Positions 5,033 through 48,352 of a stretch of 64,000 bases of DNA are shown one piece after another. Numbering within the stretch: position 1 is the first letter of the stretch; the number at the start of each line of letters is the position of its first letter. The notes beneath the pieces were generated by a model. It saw only the letters and a program-made list of their open reading frames with translations, made no database searches and was not told the origin of the DNA. The translations under genes and the position numbers were made by a program. Source of the stretch: Bacteroidales bacterium (GTDB taxonomy: Bacteria > Bacteroidota > Bacteroidia > Bacteroidales > P3); contig JAFTBM010000035.1 in NCBI GenBank assembly GCA_017455205.1, forward strand, positions 2,933-66,932, in the 5' to 3' direction.

Positions 5033-5101
5033 GTTCTTCAATCGTTCTTCAATCGTTCTTCAATCGTTCTTCAATAACCTATTGAAGAACTATTGAAGAA
5101 C
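5033..5101 (+). repeat. Tandem-word hairpin: GTTCTTCAAT(C/A) x4, 5-nt loop, inverted word x2
   Basis: Words start at 5033, 5044, 5055 and 5066. Inverted words TATTGAAGAAC start at 5080 and 5091. The same word and layout occur at 56436-56504. Confidence 0.9.
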
Positions 5102-16583: not shown

Positions 16584-19127
16584 ATGAGAAAGAAAGCACT
16601 TTCCTTCTGGGCAACCGTAGTCGTGGCCGTCCTGTCTGCATCGGCCCAGACCTTCACCGCCACTAATGCCGACGGCGTCGCCATCAACTATTCCGTCCTC
16701 TCGGCTACCGACCACACCGTCCAGGTAGAACCCTCCGCCTACTCGGGACGCGTCGTCATTCCAGGGACGGTGACCTACAACGGGGACGCCTATACCGTGG
16801 TCTCCATTGATACCGCCTTCCGAGGCACTGGCATTACCTACTTGAGCCTACCAGCCTCGGTTGCTTCTTTGAAACTGATGGCGCTGCTCAACTGCTCACG
16901 TCTCGACACGCTCTATCTCGCCTCCACCGCACCTGTGGAGGTGCCAACCTACCGCAATTACCACCTCCCTGAGTTCATCTTTTACAGCACCAACTCCCAG
17001 CCTATTGGCACCACAGTCGTCGTGCCGTGCGGCAGTCTGCAACGCTACCGCGACAGATATTGGGAGAGTGTCCCTAAGCTGACCTCTCCCTGTGCCGTGC
17101 CGCTGACCGTCGTTTCCTCCGCCGACAGCATCTTCCGCTTCGATAGCATCCGCTACAATTTAGGCGGCAATCCCATACTCCACTACAGCAATCGCGACTA
17201 TGAGGTGGGCGATACCGCCCGCATAAAGGCCGAGCGTATAGTCTTTCGTTGGAACTGGGGATCTTATGTGCCACGTTTCGGCTGGTTCATTGGCTGGGCG
17301 GACGGCTGCCATGAGCTCAACCGCACGTTTATTGTAACCCGTGCCGACACGCTGCGCTGCATCGTCGACACATTCCACTATGCCCAGCTCTCCGCCAGCC
17401 GCATCTCTACCCCGGTCTACCAGTTCGGCACCCTCAGCTACGACGGGCGTGCGGGCAATAACTACCGCTTCTCCGACCTCGGCAACCAATCCACCATCTA
17501 CGCCACAGCCCTCTGGGTGGGCAGCCACGATAGCCTCTCCTACAGTGCCCCCAACTACTCCGACACGGTGTCCGTCGCAGCCGACCGCTTCTTCTACAAC
17601 GGCCTCTCCGACTACTTCCCCGGTCCTCTGCGCATTGCCGATGCCACTACCGACCTCCAAACCACCCTCGATTTCAACCGCGTGTGGCACCTCACCCGCG
17701 AGATGATAGACTACCACCTCGCCCACTTCCGCGACCCTGGCTATACCCCCGCACCCGACATCCTCACCTGGCCTGGCAACGGCCCGGAGGGTTATGCCAC
17801 GCAGCTGGCACCCTATTTCGATGCCGACAGCGATGGGGTCTACAATCCCCTCAAGGGCGACTACCCCCTCATCCGTGGCGACGAGTGCGTCTTCTCTATC
17901 TTCAATGATGCCTTCGGCCTCCACGGCGAGAGCCAAGGGCGCACCCTCGGCATCGAGGTACACGCTATGACCTACGCCTTCCACGAACCCACCGACACCG
18001 CCCTCTGGAACTCCGTCTTCGTCCACTACGACATCTACAACCGCTCTGCCGCCGACCACCCCAACACCTACTTCGGTGCCTGGACCGACTTCGACCTTGG
18101 CAACGCCATGGACGACTACATAGGTTGCGACGTTGCCCGCGGCTTCTTCTACGCATACAATGGCAACGAACAGGACCTCCCTGGCGAAGGCTGTTTCATG
18201 GGCGTGCCGCCAGCGCAGGGCTGTGCCATCCTCGGCGGTGCCTCCCTGCCTGCCGATGGGAAGGACAACCCCGCCTTCACCATCGACGACTTCTCGGGCT
18301 TCACCCTCAGCGACCCCCTCGGCAACATGGGCATCAACGGCCTGCACTTCGGCGACGGCATTGCCGACAACGAGCGCATGGGCATGACCTCATTCGTCTA
18401 CTACAACAACAGCGTGAGCGGTTATAACAGCGAGCCCTCCCGTTCCACCGACTACTACAACTACATGTGCGCCTTGTGGAAGAACAACCAGCACATAAAG
18501 TACGGCGGCGACGGCCTCGGCACCGGCACCACCTCGCTCTCCGCCAGGTTCATGTTCCCCGGCGATAGCGACCCCTGGCATTGGGGCACCGATGGCATCA
18601 ATCCCGAAGTCCATCCCAACGACTGGACCGAGGCTACCGCCGGCAACATCCCTGGCGACCGCCGCGGCATCGCAGGCAGCGGCTGCTTCACCTTCCAGGC
18701 CAGCAGCCGCCAGCAGTTCGACCTGGCCTACACCACCGGCTTTGGCAATGTTGATGTGCAGTCGTCGGTCGATGCACTCGTGCGCAACGTCGAGAGTGTA
18801 CGCCGCCAGTTTGCCCGCGACACCACCGACTCGGGTCGCCCCTTCGTCTATGCGCCCCTCGTCGAGCCCCTGCCGCCAGTTGATACCACTGGCATCAATG
18901 GCGTGGAAACTACGCAGCTACAGGTCACCCCAAATCCCACTTCGGGCATCATTACCATAACCGTTGCATCCTCCTTCGGCACGTTACAACTCCTTGATAT
19001 GACGGGTCGCACCCTCATGGCCGTCCCCATTGCCGAAGGTGTTGCTACCCTCGACCTCTCCCCCCTGCCACAAGGCATCTACCTCCTCCGCATCGGCAAT
19101 GCCACGCAGCGCATCGTCAAGCGATAA
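16584..19127 (+). CDS. BspA-type leucine-rich-repeat surface protein with a T9SS type-A C-terminal sorting domain
   Basis: Signal peptide. N-terminal LRR-like segment (VVIPGTVTYNGDAYTVVSIDTAFRGTGITYLSLPASV). The C-terminus LQVTPNPTSGIITI...GIYLLRIGNATQRIVKR is a CTD. Confidence 0.85.
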   Translation: MRKKALSFWATVVVAVLSASAQTFTATNADGVAINYSVLSATDHTVQVEPSAYSGRVVIPGTVTYNGDAYTVVSIDTAFRGTGITYLSLPASVASLKLMALLNCSRLDTLYLASTAPVEVPTYRNYHLPEFIFYSTNSQPIGTTVVVPCGSLQRYRDRYWESVPKLTSPCAVPLTVVSSADSIFRFDSIRYNLGGNPILHYSNRDYEVGDTARIKAERIVFRWNWGSYVPRFGWFIGWADGCHELNRTFIVTRADTLRCIVDTFHYAQLSASRISTPVYQFGTLSYDGRAGNNYRFSDLGNQSTIYATALWVGSHDSLSYSAPNYSDTVSVAADRFFYNGLSDYFPGPLRIADATTDLQTTLDFNRVWHLTREMIDYHLAHFRDPGYTPAPDILTWPGNGPEGYATQLAPYFDADSDGVYNPLKGDYPLIRGDECVFSIFNDAFGLHGESQGRTLGIEVHAMTYAFHEPTDTALWNSVFVHYDIYNRSAADHPNTYFGAWTDFDLGNAMDDYIGCDVARGFFYAYNGNEQDLPGEGCFMGVPPAQGCAILGGASLPADGKDNPAFTIDDFSGFTLSDPLGNMGINGLHFGDGIADNERMGMTSFVYYNNSVSGYNSEPSRSTDYYNYMCALWKNNQHIKYGGDGLGTGTTSLSARFMFPGDSDPWHWGTDGINPEVHPNDWTEATAGNIPGDRRGIAGSGCFTFQASSRQQFDLAYTTGFGNVDVQSSVDALVRNVESVRRQFARDTTDSGRPFVYAPLVEPLPPVDTTGINGVETTQLQVTPNPTSGIITITVASSFGTLQLLDMTGRTLMAVPIAEGVATLDLSPLPQGIYLLRIGNATQRIVKR

Positions 19128-19208: not shown

Positions 19209-19241
19209 GTTCACCGCTGCCAATGGTAGTCAGCGGTGAAC
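19209..19241 (+). terminator. Hairpin downstream of the LRR-CTD gene (possible terminator, no T-run)
   Basis: Perfect 11-bp stem GTTCACCGCTG / CAGCGGTGAAC with an 11-nt loop. Confidence 0.3.
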
Positions 19242-19332
19242 TGTTGCAGTCTTTCTACAAGGCAGGAATCATTCCTTATTCATATTCCGTAAAAGACCGT
19301 CTGAAAACTTTTTGGCGTTAAAATTGCAGAAG

Positions 19333-19508
19333 TCTCATTTTCAGTTATTTGGCAATTTGGTAGGAGGGGTGGTATAAATGGCTGACAGACAGCCTCTTGT
19401 AGGCATCCCCTTCTTCCCCTCTTCTTCCCTTCTTCTTCTCCCCTTTTTCCCCTCCTTTTCTCTGGAAGAAGAGGGGAGGTAGGGAGGCGGAAGGGAAAGG
19501 GTAAAAGA
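19333..19508 (+). repeat. Dispersed element, copy A: conserved about 70-nt head, 58-nt pure pyrimidine tract, then a complementary purine-rich tract
   Basis: Pyrimidine-only run at 19406-19463, purine-rich run at 19464-19508. 19403-19426 is the exact reverse complement of 46515-46538, and the flanking head is collinear with 46539-46610. Confidence 0.85.
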
Positions 19509-19665
19509 TACTATGTGGTTGGGGTAGGGGAGGGGTGAGCCTCGAAAATAATACTCGTCAAGCGGAAGTGTTCGTTGGGATGGTTGCACACGCACCCACT
19601 ATCAGCCCATAGGCTGTGTGTGCATCGGGTGGGACGGATAGCTCTGCCGGGCGCAATGGTGCAGC

Positions 19666-20604
19666 CTACCACCGCTCGCCGTTGAGGGCAGCCTCGTAGT
19701 GCTGCACGTAGGCTCGAGCCATCACATCGGCATTGAACCTCTCGGCTGCATATTCGTGGCAGCGGCGGGGCGAGTAGGTCTGGTGCTGAATAGCTTCAGC
19801 TATGCCCTTGGCAAGTGTCTCCTCATTGGCTGACAGAAACCCTACCTCTGGCGTTACAATCTCGGGCAGCGACCCTCGAGGGGTGCCAAATACAGGTGCT
19901 CCGTAGTAGAGCGACTCGGTGAGGGCAAGGCCAAAAGGCTCATCCCACAGCACGGGGAACACCAGCCCGCGCGAGCGGCAGATGTAGTGCTGCTTGGCTC
20001 GGTCGTCGACCATGCCGTGGAAGTGCACGTGTGGGTTGAGGGTCAGCCTAAAACCCATCTTGAAATTCAGTCGTGTGCCGCCCAGCACCTCCAGCCGCCC
20101 GCCTGGCACGCGGTCCACCACGCGGATGGCTCCGTGGAGGTTCTTCACTTTCCAAGCGGCTTTGCCGAGGAAGTGGAAGTGCGACCTCGGTAGGTCAAGT
20201 TCTGGCCGAGGGTAGTCGTCCCAGTCCAGACCGTTGCAGACGTAGTGTGTTGCCCCATGGCGGGCGGCATGGTTGTGGGAGACGAAGATGGCCATCGGCG
20301 GCAGCGGCTCGCCCTGCCCGATATTGCCGTGCACTGTGGTTACAAAGGGCCGGGCATCGAACCCCTGGGGGATCACATCGTGGAAATGCACAAGGTCGGC
20401 ATCCGAGGGCAGCTGGTTGGCAAAAGGCTGCGTAGGGTCGTATATCTTTACTTCGGCAAAAGGCGAGGCAGACCCCTCGGCACAGAGCAGCGTTACGCGA
20501 TGTCCCATGCGGGTCAGTGCTTTGCCGAGCGACCATATCACCCGCTCCGTACCTCCGTAGCGGAGGGCGGGCAGTTGTGCGTTCTTGTAGATGACGATGT
20601 GCAT
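19666..20604 (-). CDS. Glycosyltransferase family 4-like protein
   Basis: Start taken at MHIVIYKNAQLPALRYGGTERVIWSLGKAL (GT4 N-terminal motif). A C-terminal E(x7)E-like region is present (WDEPFGLALTESLYYGAP). The longer ORF start at 20706 translates the 7-mer repeat. Confidence 0.85.
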   Translation of the reverse strand: MHIVIYKNAQLPALRYGGTERVIWSLGKALTRMGHRVTLLCAEGSASPFAEVKIYDPTQPFANQLPSDADLVHFHDVIPQGFDARPFVTTVHGNIGQGEPLPPMAIFVSHNHAARHGATHYVCNGLDWDDYPRPELDLPRSHFHFLGKAAWKVKNLHGAIRVVDRVPGGRLEVLGGTRLNFKMGFRLTLNPHVHFHGMVDDRAKQHYICRSRGLVFPVLWDEPFGLALTESLYYGAPVFGTPRGSLPEIVTPEVGFLSANEETLAKGIAEAIQHQTYSPRRCHEYAAERFNADVMARAYVQHYEAALNGERW

Positions 20605-26452: not shown

Positions 26453-26485
26453 GCAAAAAAAGTTGAAACCAGAGTTGCCATCCCC

Positions 26486-26561
26486 AATTCTCAATTTTCA
26501 ATTCTCAATTTTCACTTCCCATTTTCCCCAATTCTCAATTCTCAATTTTCAATTCTCAATT
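26486..26561. repeat. 7-mer word array AATT(C/T)TC x about 10; same word family as 20605-20730 in the opposite orientation
   Basis: Units at 26486, 26493, 26500, 26507, (26514, 26521 degenerate), 26530, 26537, 26544 and 26551. Preceded by GCCATCCCC. Confidence 0.9.
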
Positions 26562-43103: not shown

Positions 43104-44462
43104 ATGCTGCAACGTTTCGCCGACTATATTAGGCTCCATGGCCTCATCGCCGAAGGCGAAAGAACCCTCCTCGCCGTCAGCGGCGGACGCGATTCCGTCT
43201 GCCTCGCCCACCTCGCCCACCAGCTCCACCTTCCCTTCGCCATTGCCCACTGCAACTTCCACCTCCGCCCCTCCGACTGCGATCGCGACCAGGAATTCGT
43301 CCGCAGCCTCGCCCAGTCTCTCCATGTCCCCTTCTTCACCACCGATTTCGACACCCACGCTTATGCCCAAGCCCAAGGCTACAGCCTCGAACAGGCAGCT
43401 CGCCTTCTGCGCTACGCCTACTTCGCCCACCTCTGCCAGTCCGAACACTACTCCCGCCTCGCCACAGCCCACCACCTCGACGACTCCATCGAGACTTTCT
43501 TCCTCAACCTCTTCCGAGGCACTGGCATAGCAGGTCTACACGGCATCCTCCCCCTCTCCCATCTCACCCTCCCACCCACCGACACCGCTGTCGCCGACGC
43601 TCCGCCCATCAGTCTCACCGTAGTGCACCCTATGCTCTGCTTCTCCCGCGCCGAAATCGATGCCTACCTCGCACAGCATCAATTAGCCTATGTGGACGAC
43701 AGCACCAATTTCGAACCCGAGGTGCAGCGCAACCGCATCCGTCTCCAGCTGATGCCTCTCCTGCGCGAGCTTTACCCCTCGGTCGATACTACTATGCAGG
43801 CCAACATCCATCGGCTGCATGAGGTAGAGCAGGTCTATCGGTTGCATATCGAAGACCTTCGTCGCAAGCTCTGCCATCGTGTCGCCCCCCGTCTTCCTTG
43901 GCTCTCCATGCCCATCGATGCGTTCCCCCTGACCAGCCTCGCGACCCTCTCCCCACGCAGCACCCTCCTCTTCGAACTCTTGCGTCCCTATGGCTTCAAT
44001 GCCTCCGTGGTGGCCAATATCGAAGCCTCTCTCCCTTCCCCCCAATCGGGTAGCCAATTCTGCTCGCCAACCCACCGTGCCGCCATTGACCGCGACCAGC
44101 TCCTCGTTGCACCCATTCCCCCCCCCACCGCTCCCACCCTCACCATCCGCGAAACCACTCTCCCCTCCTCCCCCCGCACCGATGCCTGCCAGATCTACGT
44201 CGCCCCCACCAGCCTCCGTCTGCCACTGCGTCTGCGCCCCTGGCATCCAGCCGACCGCTTCTGCCCCTTCGGCATGAGCGGAAGCCGACTGGTCAGCGAC
44301 TTCCTGAAGGATGCAAAGCTCAACGCCCTCGAGAAGCCGCATGTCCAACTGCTCGTTGATGCCAGCGATAGGGTGGTCTGGGTTGTCGGCCTGCGAGCCG
44401 ACAACCGCTTCCGTGTGCATCAAGCAGGCGATGCCTGCTGGCTCGTCAGCGTATCGCAATAA
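43104..44462 (+). CDS. tilS: tRNA(Ile)-lysidine synthetase
   Basis: PP-loop LLAVSGGRDSVCL, AHHLDD and a TilS C-terminal domain. 452 aa. Confidence 0.9.
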   Translation: MLQRFADYIRLHGLIAEGERTLLAVSGGRDSVCLAHLAHQLHLPFAIAHCNFHLRPSDCDRDQEFVRSLAQSLHVPFFTTDFDTHAYAQAQGYSLEQAARLLRYAYFAHLCQSEHYSRLATAHHLDDSIETFFLNLFRGTGIAGLHGILPLSHLTLPPTDTAVADAPPISLTVVHPMLCFSRAEIDAYLAQHQLAYVDDSTNFEPEVQRNRIRLQLMPLLRELYPSVDTTMQANIHRLHEVEQVYRLHIEDLRRKLCHRVAPRLPWLSMPIDAFPLTSLATLSPRSTLLFELLRPYGFNASVVANIEASLPSPQSGSQFCSPTHRAAIDRDQLLVAPIPPPTAPTLTIRETTLPSSPRTDACQIYVAPTSLRLPLRLRPWHPADRFCPFGMSGSRLVSDFLKDAKLNALEKPHVQLLVDASDRVVWVVGLRADNRFRVHQAGDACWLVSVSQ

Positions 44463-45714
44463 AACTCTTCACCGCCAGCAGCCGGTCGCCACGGTCGGCA
44501 GGCGTGTGCTGATAGACATAGACCGTGTAGCGGTTGCTGGTCTCGCTATGGTCGCCTTCGAGCTGTGCCGTCTTCGACTCCCACTGCGAATACTGCCCGT
44601 TGGCATAGAGCAGCTGGTAGGAATAATAACCCTGCTTCAAGAAAAGGCGTAGCGTGTAGGCCTTGATGGTGGGATTGTATTGCATCATCGAGGTCGAATC
44701 CATCTTCCAGTCGGTGATTGCACCCACCACATGCACGTTGCCATCCATATAAGGCTGCTGCATCGGCAGGCTGAAGTTCACCCACACGTAGTCCGCCTCC
44801 AGCCGAGGATTTTCCCTGTCCCAGATATTCACCTTCATCCCCCCGTTGAGCACCGTCTCGTTGAGGTAGTGCTTCCGCGAACGGTCATCCTCGGGATTAA
44901 GCACCACAAACTGCTCCCCACCATAGTTCTCCACGCTCGACACATTATAGCCCGTCCCCCGCAGGTTGCTGCAGTCAAAATAGCGAAACGTGTTGCCCCC
45001 ATCGAAGATATTGCACTGTCGGTTGGCAAACAGCACCGCCTGGCCTTCGTAGCCGCTAAACTCCAGCAGCCGCATGTTATCCAGCCTACCATTCTGCTGC
45101 ACCGCCACCGTCAGGTACTCGGGCCGCTGGTCGGTCGCCACCGCCACATCCACCTCCTGCCGTCGCCCCACACCGATGCCGTCGTAGGGGCGCGTATTGG
45201 TCGCCCTCACCGTGGTCTTCTGCTCGCTTACGCAAAAACGGCGTGTCAGCAGCACCCCGCTCTTGCCGAGGTCTTCCTCGCTGCTGATGGTCAGCTCGTA
45301 GTTGCCCGAGTGCGTAAACGCAGCGTAGCGGTCGGGCAAGAGGCACCGATAGTGGACATACTCCACCGTGGTGGTAAACGAGAACTCGAAATCCTCTATC
45401 GTCCCCTCGGCAAACCCCGTCATAAACTCCTCCGGCTGCAAGTCGTCGGGCACCCAGCAGCGGTCGCAGTGGCGAATGCTCCAATGCAACCTCTCCGATC
45501 GTGTACCCATCACGTCGAACTCCACCACCAGCCGCCCCCTCGCCCCGAGGGTGAGCATCGGCACTGGCAGCGCCTTCTGCGGATTGTCGCCCGTGGTGCT
45601 GTTGAACATCACCACCGTCCGCACATCCTTCCGCCAAATGGAATCCACTGCAACCCTTGCACTTACTCCCCAGCTTGCCACCACGGCAAGCACTATTGTC
45701 ATCATCTTTTTCAT
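44446..45714 (-). CDS. DUF5103-family protein (T9SS SprA-plug-like)
   Basis: Signal peptide. The pattern ...L.VEFDVMG......L.WSIRHCDRCWVPDDL...EF..GF......FEFS..T.V.Y.HY matches the DUF5103 N-terminal consensus as I recall it. Family recognition only. Confidence 0.65.
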   Translation of the reverse strand: MKKMMTIVLAVVASWGVSARVAVDSIWRKDVRTVVMFNSTTGDNPQKALPVPMLTLGARGRLVVEFDVMGTRSERLHWSIRHCDRCWVPDDLQPEEFMTGFAEGTIEDFEFSFTTTVEYVHYRCLLPDRYAAFTHSGNYELTISSEEDLGKSGVLLTRRFCVSEQKTTVRATNTRPYDGIGVGRRQEVDVAVATDQRPEYLTVAVQQNGRLDNMRLLEFSGYEGQAVLFANRQCNIFDGGNTFRYFDCSNLRGTGYNVSSVENYGGEQFVVLNPEDDRSRKHYLNETVLNGGMKVNIWDRENPRLEADYVWVNFSLPMQQPYMDGNVHVVGAITDWKMDSTSMMQYNPTIKAYTLRLFLKQGYYSYQLLYANGQYSQWESKTAQLEGDHSETSNRYTVYVYQHTPADRGDRLLAVKSFIAIR

Positions 45715-46330: not shown

Positions 46331-46463
46331 CGCTTTTTTTTCAAATTGCCAACTCTTCTCTTGGAATTCAGGCGGTTTTCTTGACGTTGGGTATCGAGGC
46401 TATGTGCCAGTTGGTGGGCTTGACAGCTGGGATGTGTTATCGAAATCGTTCCGACCCCATTCG

Positions 46464-46610
46464 CTTCCCCTTCTTCCAGGGTAAATGTTAATAAGAAGGG
46501 GGTAAGAAGGGGGTAAGAAGAGGGGAAGAAGGGGATGCTTACAGGTGCCTGATTATGTGCATTTTAGGCCGCCTTGCCCTACATTTCGCCAAAACGCTGA
46601 AAATGAGCGA
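46464..46610 (-). repeat. Dispersed element, copy B (inverted relative to copy A): short pyrimidine arm, loop, GTAAGAAGGGG-type purine words, conserved head
   Basis: CTTCCCCTTCTTCC at 46464-46477. AAGAAGGGGGTAAGAAGGGGGTAAGAAGAGGGGAAGAAGGGGATGC at 46492-46538. 46539-46610 is collinear with the reverse complement of 19333-19402. Confidence 0.85.
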
Positions 46611-46987
46611 GATAATAAATTTCCTAAAATCACGTTAAGTTAAATTAAGGAATGGGTGTGGGTAGGAGGTCAGAGGCTTCTTGGGAGGGGGAAACGGGGG
46701 CTGGAGGCCAAGGGGAAGTGGGTCGGGTGGAGGAGGGATTGTCAGTTAGTGGGCAACGCTTCCAAGCGTTGCATTTGAGTGTAGGGGAAGAAATGGGGTT
46801 GGGAATGTGATGAGGAAAGAGGACAAGGGCGGTGGAAAATTCTGGTGGTGGGACGAGGACGTGAGGTGGAAGGGGGTGTGGGGAGGAAGCGAGTGGTAGA
46901 TGTTTGGAAGAGGTTGAAAGTCATTTGGTTGATTGGATTTCGGCGAACTGGGAGGCGGTGCGGTCGGCTGGATTGCAGAAAAATGTG

Positions 46988-46995
46988 TATCTTTG
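46988..46995 (+). promoter_or_regulatory. -7 promoter box TATCTTTG upstream of miaB
   Basis: Matches TAnnTTTG followed by CA. It is 25 nt upstream of the ATG at 47021. Confidence 0.5.
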
Positions 46996-47020
46996 CACTC
47001 TGTTTAGTTTTTGAGTAGAT

Positions 47021-48352
47021 ATGGAGAATGTGTATATTGAGACCTATGGTTGCCAGATGAACTTTGCCGACAGCGAGGTGGTGGGGGCGATATTGCGTGA
47101 AGCGGGCTATGGGTTGGTTCAAGATTTGGATGCGGCCGATTTTGTGCTGATTAATACCTGTGCCATTCGCGACAATGCCGAACAGCGGGTGCGTCATCGG
47201 GTGCGTGAGTTGCGGGCGGCGCAGAACAGGCAGGCTGGACTTCGCATTGGGGTGCTGGGTTGCATGGCTGAACGCTTGCAGAGCCGCTTGATGGTGGAGG
47301 AGGAGAACGTCTCGTTTGTGTGTGGCCCTGATGCCTACCGCCGCCTGCCGTCGCTGCTGGCGCAGGTGAGGGAGGGACAGAAAGGTGCCGAGGTGGAGCT
47401 CAGCACCACCGAGACTTATGCCGACATTGAGCCAGTGCGCTTGGCAAGCAATGGGGTGTCGGCTTATATCAGCATCATGCGTGGTTGTCAGAACTATTGC
47501 ACCTATTGTGTGGTGCCCTACACGCGTGGGCGCGAGCGCAGCCGCGAGCCGCAGACGATTGTGGCCGAGGCACGAGCGCTGTTTGAGCAGGGCTATCGCG
47601 AGGTGACGCTGCTGGGGCAGAACGTCAATAGCTACCGTTGGGAGACTGATGGTGGGAGGACAGCGGTGGATTTTGCCGAGCTGATGCGCCAGGTGGCCGA
47701 GGTGAGTCCGCTGCTGCGGGTGAGGTTTGCCACCTCGCACCCGAAGGATTTGAGCGACAGGCTGATTGAGGTCATGGCCAGCTATGCCAATATCTGCCGC
47801 AGCATCCACCTGCCGGTGCAGAGCGGGAGCAACCGAATGCTCAAAGCGATGAACCGGCGCTACACGGTGGAGTGGTACCTCGGGCGCGTGGAAGCCATAC
47901 GCTCGCGGATGCCCGACTGCTCGCTGACGACCGACGTCATCGCTGGTTTTTGTGGCGAGACGGAGGCCGACCACGAGGCCACGCTCGCGCTGTTTCGGCA
48001 GGTGGGCTACGACTATGCCTATATGTTCAAATACTCGGAGCGCGAGGGGACTTTTGCCCAGCGGCATTTGAAGGACGATGTGCCCGACGAGGTGAAGACC
48101 CGCCGCCTCAACGAGATTATCGCCTTGCAGGGAGAGATAGCACTGGCGAACAACCGCCGCGAAGTGGGACGCGACTATGAGGTGCTGGTGGAGGGCGAGA
48201 GCCATCGCAGCCGCGAGCGGCTCTTTGGGCGCACGGGGCAGGGCAAGGTGGTGGTGTTCGACCGTGGCGATGCTGCGGTGGGGAGCTATCGCCGCGTGCG
48301 GGTGGAAGATTGCACGGCGGCTACGCTGCTGGGCCGTCTGATTGATAGGTAA
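47021..48352 (+). CDS. miaB: tRNA-2-methylthio-N6-dimethylallyladenosine synthase
   Basis: IETYGCQMNFADSE (UPF0004 domain), radical-SAM CQNYCTYCVVP and a TRAM domain. 443 aa. Confidence 0.95.
   Translation: MENVYIETYGCQMNFADSEVVGAILREAGYGLVQDLDAADFVLINTCAIRDNAEQRVRHRVRELRAAQNRQAGLRIGVLGCMAERLQSRLMVEEENVSFVCGPDAYRRLPSLLAQVREGQKGAEVELSTTETYADIEPVRLASNGVSAYISIMRGCQNYCTYCVVPYTRGRERSREPQTIVAEARALFEQGYREVTLLGQNVNSYRWETDGGRTAVDFAELMRQVAEVSPLLRVRFATSHPKDLSDRLIEVMASYANICRSIHLPVQSGSNRMLKAMNRRYTVEWYLGRVEAIRSRMPDCSLTTDVIAGFCGETEADHEATLALFRQVGYDYAYMFKYSEREGTFAQRHLKDDVPDEVKTRRLNEIIALQGEIALANNRREVGRDYEVLVEGESHRSRERLFGRTGQGKVVVFDRGDAAVGSYRRVRVEDCTAATLLGRLIDR

Follow-up and report, generated by a model that had tools for sequence, protein, structure and literature searches.

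Copy A of the element studied here lies in a 64,000-nucleotide stretch of DNA, analysed as a whole and called the window, from a 2.17-Mb rumen Bacteroidales MAG (the source genome assembly, G000; the other G0 numbers below denote relatives). It is flanked by two genes with Pfam support, a plus-strand gene for a T9SS-CTD cargo protein (end at 19127) and a minus-strand gene for a GT1/GT4 glycosyltransferase (end at 19666), and its position between convergent genes agrees with the preliminary description of the sequence. By eye, each of these genes is followed by a hairpin, at 19209-19241 past the cargo gene and at about 19587-19625 past the glycosyltransferase gene. A scan for intrinsic terminators detected none inside copy A; its sole match (19231-19246) was upstream of the head, within the hairpin at 19209-19241. 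Because copy A is located between the terminator hairpins of the neighbouring genes, it is not required as their terminator. A role of the element as the terminator of its neighbours was also considered unlikely because one third of the elements are found in divergent gaps and both neighbours of copy A have their own hairpins.

Copy A begins with a head, or leader (19326-19402, plus strand), which is common to all subfamilies described below and is conserved at motifs only, as indicated by alignment A1 and by a sequence-only covariance model of the head of about 95 nt (R1). Block 1 of the head (CTCATTTTCAG, 19334-19344, plus strand; family consensus yTGAAAAyCAg) contains near-invariant T, G/A and CA columns in alignment A1. 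It is followed on the same strand by an inverted word, W' (GTAGGAGGGG, 19360-19369), which is the complement of CCCCTCCT in the array, and by block 2 (19380-19394), the palindrome GGCTGACAGACAGCC (family consensus GCTnATnnTCAGCC in alignment A1), the outer stem of which pairs without covariation support. The word array (19403-19463, plus strand) consists of GCA and 58 nt of pure pyrimidine, approximately 5.5 words of the CCCCTTCTT / CCCCTCTTCTT type, and measures 61 nt from its start to the turn. The inverted words, or purine arm (GGAAGAAGAGGGGAGG..., 19464-19508, plus strand), follow, in which GGAAGAAGAGGGGA complements the first word TCCCCTTCTTCC with one extra A. The element ends in a G-rich, C-poor tail (GGTTGGGGTAGGGGAGGGG, 19509-19548, plus strand), along which conservation falls; its composition was profiled over 41 elements. 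When copy A was folded to its MFE structure, W' was paired with the first word of the array, with block 2 at the tip of the resulting hairpin; the folding was no better than that of shuffled sequences (z = -1.4). A small ORF noticed by eye (ATG at 19378, 34 codons through the array) was rejected because the start codon is absent at that position in other copies.

The tract at 19406-19463 contains only C and T over 58 nt and is the sole pure-pyrimidine or pure-purine run of at least 25 nt in the window, where about 7e-13 runs of such kind are expected from base composition. The segment that follows (19464-19508) is 93% purine, so that the two tracts are as first described. The longest exact mirror repeat within the pyrimidine tract is 17 nt (TCTTCTTCCCTTCTTCT).

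When R1 was run on the window, two matches only were obtained, at 19326-19419 (plus strand, E 4e-18) and at 46522-46614 (minus strand, E 4e-12), the latter being the head of copy B. The word array of copy B (46480-46538, minus strand) opens with a 24-mer identical to that of copy A, 19403-19426 being the exact reverse complement of 46515-46538, and is thereafter broken by A residues, its longest pure-pyrimidine run being 21 nt. Its turn and inverted word (CTGGAAGAAGGGGAAGCGAATGGGG) were read from the sequence at 46451-46479 (minus strand). Immediately ahead of the 24-mer of copy A, 70 nt match the reverse complement of 46539-46608 at 61% identity in a gap-free alignment, close to the roughly 60% estimated earlier, and the turn motif said to be common to both copies was located as CTGGAAGAAG at 19462 (plus strand) and 46470 (minus strand). 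The genes on either side of copy B diverge from each other: a radical-SAM methylthiotransferase gene (47021-48352, plus strand) and a T9SS plug gene (44446-45714, minus strand). A minus-strand ORF at 46742-48205 (487 aa) has no Pfam match and is a shadow frame of the methylthiotransferase gene, which is the real gene; gene calling by the longest ORF is unreliable in this GC-skewed genome.

Rumen MAGs (Bacteroidales bacterium RGIG4993, RUG156, RGIG7858, UBA1208 and others) encode proteins that share 92-98% identity with the ClpP of the window. The similarity of the copy A locus to the nearest of these MAGs stops at the clpP stop codon, and R1 detected no head at their clpP loci. Further, the glycosyltransferase gene beside copy A was found in only 3 of 30 congeners.

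A common head followed by different words

When the 24-mer was searched with up to four mismatches, 13 occurrences were found in the 2.17-Mb assembly. An HMM of those 13 copies yielded about 29 full-length elements, a head-only HMM (nhmmer) more than 45 with at least five word families, and R1 counted 40-51 copies. The element thus belongs, as had been proposed, to a dispersed family in which a conserved non-repetitive head precedes a word array; the suggested checks of copy number and of related genomes revealed far more than two copies, and heads in relatives. Two contig ends, G000:C58:1-297 and G000:C8:1-297, are near-identical elements of the subfamily sub3, and since two contigs end in such elements, the assembly breaks at repeats and the copy numbers are lower bounds.

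The family consensus of the head in alignment A1 is ..TTGAAAAnCAG..AnTTTnG[TAGGAGA]..TnCAAnTnGCTnATTATCAGCC..AG. Behind it, sub1 (13 copies, including A and B) carries the word CCCCTTCTT, sub2 (about 11 copies) the word CCATCTCCTTA and sub3 (at least 12 copies with head) the word CCGCTCCGTAT, and further word families with GGTCCGTGTCA and GTTCTTCAATC are found behind the same head. Behind each array, one to three inverted words complete a hairpin, which is present in all copies, and a G-rich, C-poor tail comes next in all word families. All copies of the head-bearing family are intergenic. The potential for H-DNA, which had been put forward for the repeat, is not the common denominator of the family: the words GTTCTTCAATC, GGTCCGTGTCA and CCGCTCCGTAT behind the family head are not homopyrimidine. 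Since the same head precedes such words, what the elements have in common is inverted complementarity, that is, the hairpin, and not a triplex-prone tract. The homopyrimidine composition of sub1 is therefore a property of its particular word and not of the family.

The array had been described as variable, but in each subfamily almost every copy has an array of about 60 nt. Measured from the start of the array to the turn, 10 of the 13 sub1 copies (copy A included) have 61 nt and all nine sub2 copies (9/9) have 60 nt, and 11 of 12 sub3 copies contain five words (49+11 nt). Genome-wide, the word count of TCCGTAT-type arrays also peaks sharply at five. Among sub1 copies, most of which contain pure-pyrimidine runs of 43-58 nt, the mean pairwise identity is 0.43-0.63 in the head, where only motifs are conserved, 0.97-0.87 in the first words and the array, about 0.72 over the turn with the inverted word, and declines from 0.57 to 0.41 along the tail.

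In sub2, ATTTTnG in the head is directly followed by GTAGGAGATGAT, which is exactly complementary to the word ATCATCTCCTAC, and perfect complements of 9-13 nt between head and word are found in 9 of 11 copies. The complement measures 5-9 nt in sub1, and sub3 to sub5 possess no W' segment. In relatives with other words, the head segment has altered along with the word: AGTCGGACTTGAT of G012 faces the word ATCAAGTCCGACT; G019 pairs GTAAGAG with CTCTTAC; and in G004 the head segment AGTCGGAGATGAT is nearly identical to the 3' arm GGTCGGAGATGAT of the same element. Thus, in two subfamilies W' changes together with the word of the array when subfamilies and species are compared, and because W' is complementary to the word, the array in those subfamilies is bracketed by inverted words on both sides.

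The end of sub3 is formed by a conserved AAATTAGTTCG-N4-CGAAnTAnTTTGTTTTT hairpin and a T-run (TTTGTTTTT), oriented with the head; a simple terminator scan did not call this hairpin and TTTGTTTTT. In the same hairpin (TTCG-NNNN-CGAA; for example at L035, L036 and L048) some copies have the loop TGTG and others have CACA, its complement, as though the centre of the palindrome had flipped.

Within the genus, R1 matched 13 of 24 sampled species and 4 of 6 in a second draw, with 0-21 matches per genome. In one other genus, 2 of 5 genomes each gave a single weak match; there was none among the genomes sampled from 16 further genera of the family, and marginal matches only were obtained in those sampled from other families of the order. 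All of these counts refer to sampled genomes and not to whole taxonomic groups. On this sampling, and apart from the two single weak matches in one other genus, the family is restricted to a single genus of uncultured Bacteroidales from the rumen.

The elements are found among many other short repeats. TRF detected 624 short tandem arrays in the 2.17-Mb genome, of which 253 have a period of 11 and 101 a period of 7. In the window, GTTCTTCAAT arrays at 5033 and 56436 gave only faint partial R1 matches (E 1.7-2.8); two other arrays of GTTCTTCAAT words do have the family head. A heptamer array of AATTCTC at 26478-26561 of the window opens with GCCATCCCC, a junction motif (GCATCC / GGCATCC) as at the array starts of sub1 and sub3, and is preceded by TTGAAACCAG, which resembles block 1 of the head. 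Further, a PF05635 gene ('23S rRNA intervening-sequence protein'; L079:1400-1940, G000:C14:24193-24492), which lies between two genes, has AATTGAG heptamers upstream and inverted AATTCTC heptamers downstream.

Genomic sites and signals of the elements

The elements occupy 13 co-directional, 13 divergent, 7 convergent and 6 opposite gaps. When the GC skew of the head strand was averaged over 41-43 elements, it was -0.15 to -0.35 over the 1.5 kb upstream and +0.1 to +0.3 over about 2 kb downstream, a pattern symmetric under strand flipping, so that the elements are located at switches from minus to plus. This combination of skews in the flanking coding DNA was found at 69% of head-bearing gaps and 26% of other gaps of at least 150 nt, a control set that includes intra-operon gaps, and the association may just reflect true operon boundaries. 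Genes with the 5' end toward an element have a skew of +0.163, compared with +0.003 for other genes (p 3e-6), and those with the 3' end toward it -0.26 compared with -0.087 (p 2e-5). Headless word arrays exhibited the same minus-to-plus pattern. The window itself switches skew near 19.4 kb and 46.5 kb, and genes next to word-array hairpins are unusually rich in G in their 5' part and in C in their 3' part.

The sites themselves turn over. No head is found near the G000 orthologues of the genes that flank elements in relatives, and gene order is in many cases not preserved. Several congeners share the divergent gap of copy B in syntenic position, and its content varies by species: G000 has the sub1 element (forward), G002 a degenerate pyrimidine-word element (forward) and an extra gene, G012 and G042 sub2-like elements in the opposite orientation, G018 an array of GGTAGGTCTAT words, and G019 and G046 no element in gaps of about 70-230 nt. 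Gain, loss or replacement at one site is thus observed. The filled and empty versions of this gap are too diverged to define insertion junctions, and the 3' end of the element is fuzzy.

The idea of a MITE is unproven. In a full-length alignment of sub2 we found no terminal inverted repeats at the outer ends, where the start of the head and the G-rich tail are not complementary; the only inverted repeats were the word and the inverted word. Neither target-site duplications at the outer ends nor a mobilising gene were found. An exact-pattern scan of genome contigs gave no match to the sub1 core, and scans of metagenome contigs gave none to a flank of copy A or the sub2 core.

The source genome contains two IS200/RAYT-like Y1 transposase genes, at L072:1450-1938 (G000:C62; 162 aa) and L073:1399-1851 (G000:C39; 150 aa). 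They are accompanied by GC-rich REP-type hairpins of their own, of the CCCAGGGCAACGCCCTGGG type at C62 and the GCGTGCCTTCGGCACGC type at C39, and a unit of roughly 100 nt is repeated in tandem about five times upstream of the C39 gene (L073:1880-2420). No family heads or words flank these Y1_Tnp genes. Further, no Y1_Tnp match was found in the head-rich G012 (19 heads) and G019 (16 heads), and Y1_Tnp was present and the head absent in G005, G007, G009, G011, G018 and G023. Mobilisation by RAYT was rejected on these grounds; because the RAYT-like genes have their own, different hairpins and a phyletic pattern unlike that of the heads, the family does not belong with REP/RAYT elements.

With regard to RNA, the window had no Rfam 15 match at or above the gathering score, and eight elements compared with Rfam by E-value gave only miRNA-hairpin noise far below threshold. 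RNAalifold predicted no structure on the head alignment. Hairpins of blocks 1 and 2 paired worse than shuffled controls and showed no covariation, so that the head was rejected as a set of RNA hairpins and the covariation test suggested for an ncRNA was negative there. One sub2 element folded well (z = -4.3). The core hairpin was stabler on the top (head) strand in 17 of 40 elements (p = 0.40), indicating no strand asymmetry; a folding advantage of the top strand in 32 of 40 elements was due to the G-rich tail and was gone in the core hairpin.

The canonical Bacteroidetes -7 box TAnnTTTG, which is used ahead of genes elsewhere in the source genome, had one exact match in 40 elements (forward strand), at a position that is not shared, and a sigma-70-like promoter was not matched at copy A. 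As a sigma-70 or Bacteroidetes sigma-A promoter the head was rejected, consistent boxes or spacing being absent. The strict IHF consensus was found in 4 of 40 heads and a relaxed WHYCAR-N4-TT motif at block 1 in 16 of 40. An IHF site or Fur half-site in the head was rejected, the resemblance being weak and relaxed.

Interpretation of the elements

We lean, by a modest degree, toward the view that copy A belongs to an intergenic DNA repeat of the BOX, BIME or BrickBuilt kind, which is specific to the lineage, modular in build and hairpin-forming. The parts of an element are, in order, an AT-rich leader of about 95 nt with two TGA-N4/5-CA(G) motifs, which in some subfamilies includes the inverted word W', a fixed array of about 60 nt with five words of 9-11 nt, one to three inverted words that close the hairpin, and a G-rich tail. 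Whole units may have been copied to new intergenic sites by a trans-acting activity or by recombination, and hairpin-templated correction or gene conversion probably keeps arms and words matched. The motifs of the leader probably bind protein, as required either for propagation or for a role in the host. Any such role would most likely be structural, the cruciform or hairpin and its bound protein forming a landmark at the boundaries of transcription units. In favour of this reading are the number of copies, their distribution and the turnover of sites, the equal folding of both strands, the lack of structure in the head and of TAnnTTTG boxes, the occurrence in gaps of all types, the many short tandem arrays of the genome and the published example of BrickBuilt. 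Several observations speak against it. A recent mobile burst should give even similarity along the element, yet the array is 0.87-0.97 identical and the head 0.43-0.63, a contrast to be expected of a product under constraint whose control region has diverged. The fixed array length (61, 60 or 49+11 nt) is unlike that of minisatellite MITEs; terminal inverted repeats, target-site duplications and a mobilising gene were not found; and the sub3 hairpin with TTTGTTTTT looks like the intrinsic terminator of a small transcription unit.

The elements may instead be about 50 small non-coding RNA genes, transcribed from the head as a non-canonical promoter. Each transcript would carry a platform of five words, fixed at about 60 nt and held by inverted words at one end or at both; in sub1 this platform would be a G-free, C/U-rich stretch of 40-60 nt, a candidate binder of a protein or of purine-rich RNA targets. 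This interpretation is less likely, but is a serious rival. It is consistent with first words that are 0.97 identical behind a head conserved at motifs only, with the fixed array length, with the co-variation of W' and word (perfect complements of 12-13 nt in sub2 and in the G012 and G004 elements, which use different words), with the terminator-like hairpin and T-run of sub3 oriented with the head, with the fold of one sub2 element (z = -4.3), and with the position of copy A between its neighbours' own terminator hairpins, for which it is not needed. However, TAnnTTTG is present in 1 of 40 elements and copy A has no sigma-70-like match, the head shows no RNA covariation and Rfam no match, the core hairpin has no strand asymmetry, the sites are not conserved between species, and copy A itself folds no better than shuffled sequences (z = -1.4). 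Alternatively, the elements may be protein-bound boundary elements. By analogy with iterons and Rho footprints, five in-phase 11-bp words might act as iteron-like sites and the head as sites for IHF/HU-like or other dimeric proteins, and/or the C-rich arm and hairpin might form a two-way Rho-loading or pausing site, so that neighbouring transcription units would be insulated. The 11-bp period and the fixed number of five words, the relaxed WHYCAR-N4-TT motif at block 1 in 16 of 40 heads, and the location of elements and headless arrays at minus-to-plus skew switches (69% against 26% of gaps; +0.163 for 5'-facing and -0.26 for 3'-facing genes) point in this direction; given the flanking skew, RNA arriving from either side would be C-rich and G-poor before the hairpin. 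We nevertheless regard such boundary elements as improbable, because the strict IHF consensus occurs in only 4 of 40 heads, no gene reads into the one third of elements that lie in divergent gaps, and the skew may reflect true operon boundaries, the control gaps including intra-operon ones.

An intramolecular triplex (H-DNA) through which the element would act, for example by stalling polymerases, is highly improbable. The 58-nt pure-pyrimidine tract of copy A with mirror repeats of up to 17 nt and the runs of 43-58 nt in most sub1 copies agree with it, and triplex formation by copy A itself would be physically possible. However, the same head, geometry and closing inverted word occur with mixed-sequence words that are unable to form H-DNA, the tract of copy B is interrupted (longest run 21 nt), and the conserved relation is inverted complementarity, not mirror symmetry. 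The triplex-forming potential thus looks incidental. A broader proposal, which we consider quite unlikely, is that the elements are functional units in which a non-canonical control head precedes a re-writable, fixed platform of five words and about 60 nt, which would stay nearly the same in sequence at the roughly 10-13 loci of a subfamily and be held by inverted words that co-vary with it. Such a platform, whether RNA or DNA, might recruit a periodic binder (a hexameric or filament-forming one, such as Rho or an RHH-type protein) and thereby set the boundaries of G-rich-to-C-rich domains along transcription units.

In uncultured Bacteroidales of gut and rumen, word-built hairpins make up a large part of the non-coding DNA. 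The family studied here adds testable handles: one leader for different words, W' in step with the word, the five-word length, conservation that is higher in the array than in the leader, and the jump of skew from minus to plus. A binding protein or a transcript, once found, might account for the repeats as well as for the unusual G-to-C composition gradient along transcription units of this lineage; if neither is found, the elements would be another lineage-specific selfish repeat.

Comparison with known repeat systems

Cyanobacterial STRR heptamer arrays and long simple-sequence repeats (units of 5-11 nt) are likewise short tandem words that are dispersed between genes, often as inverted pairs. 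By description, STRR arrays have no shared leader and a period of 7, whereas the family has a period of 11 and a fixed number of words. BOX of Streptococcus pneumoniae (boxA-boxBn-boxC) and the Correia elements of Neisseria consist of an end, an internal repeat and an end, form hairpins, are intergenic and reach about a hundred copies in a 2-Mb genome; boxB is 45 bp and variable in copy number, and Correia elements have an IHF site, promoters, terminal inverted repeats and TA duplications. Compared by their general descriptions, these elements and the family are alike in modular hairpin design and unrelated in sequence. REP, BIME and REPIN sequences (RAYT, Y1 HUH), one BIME class of which has an IHF site, resemble the family as extragenic palindromic repeats with many copies and mosaics. 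In contrast, the elements of the family are much longer, are built from tandem words and have no link to RAYT. Unlike a minisatellite or VNTR, the family does not vary in the number of repeat units between copies.

The BrickBuilt element of Porphyromonas gingivalis is a minisatellite-MITE with a leader, spacer-less head-to-tail repeats and a tail; its roughly 19 copies all lie between genes, and its occurrence is limited to its lineage (Klein et al. 2015, PMC4596501). Its repeats are 23 nt long and number 1 to 22.8, its ends are small inverted repeats, and transcripts and promoter activity were reported for its leader and tail (PMC4596501). The family differs in its words of 9-11 nt in an array fixed at about five, where the BrickBuilt repeats of 23 nt are variable in number, and in ends at which the inverted repeats of BrickBuilt were not seen. 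Further, BrickBuilt has no closing inverted words, and the array of the family is closed, and sometimes also preceded, by such words, giving a hairpin with co-varying arms. Both are nevertheless found in Bacteroidales, are composed of a leader, tandem repeats and a tail, are always intergenic and are limited in lineage, and BrickBuilt is thus the closest described element.
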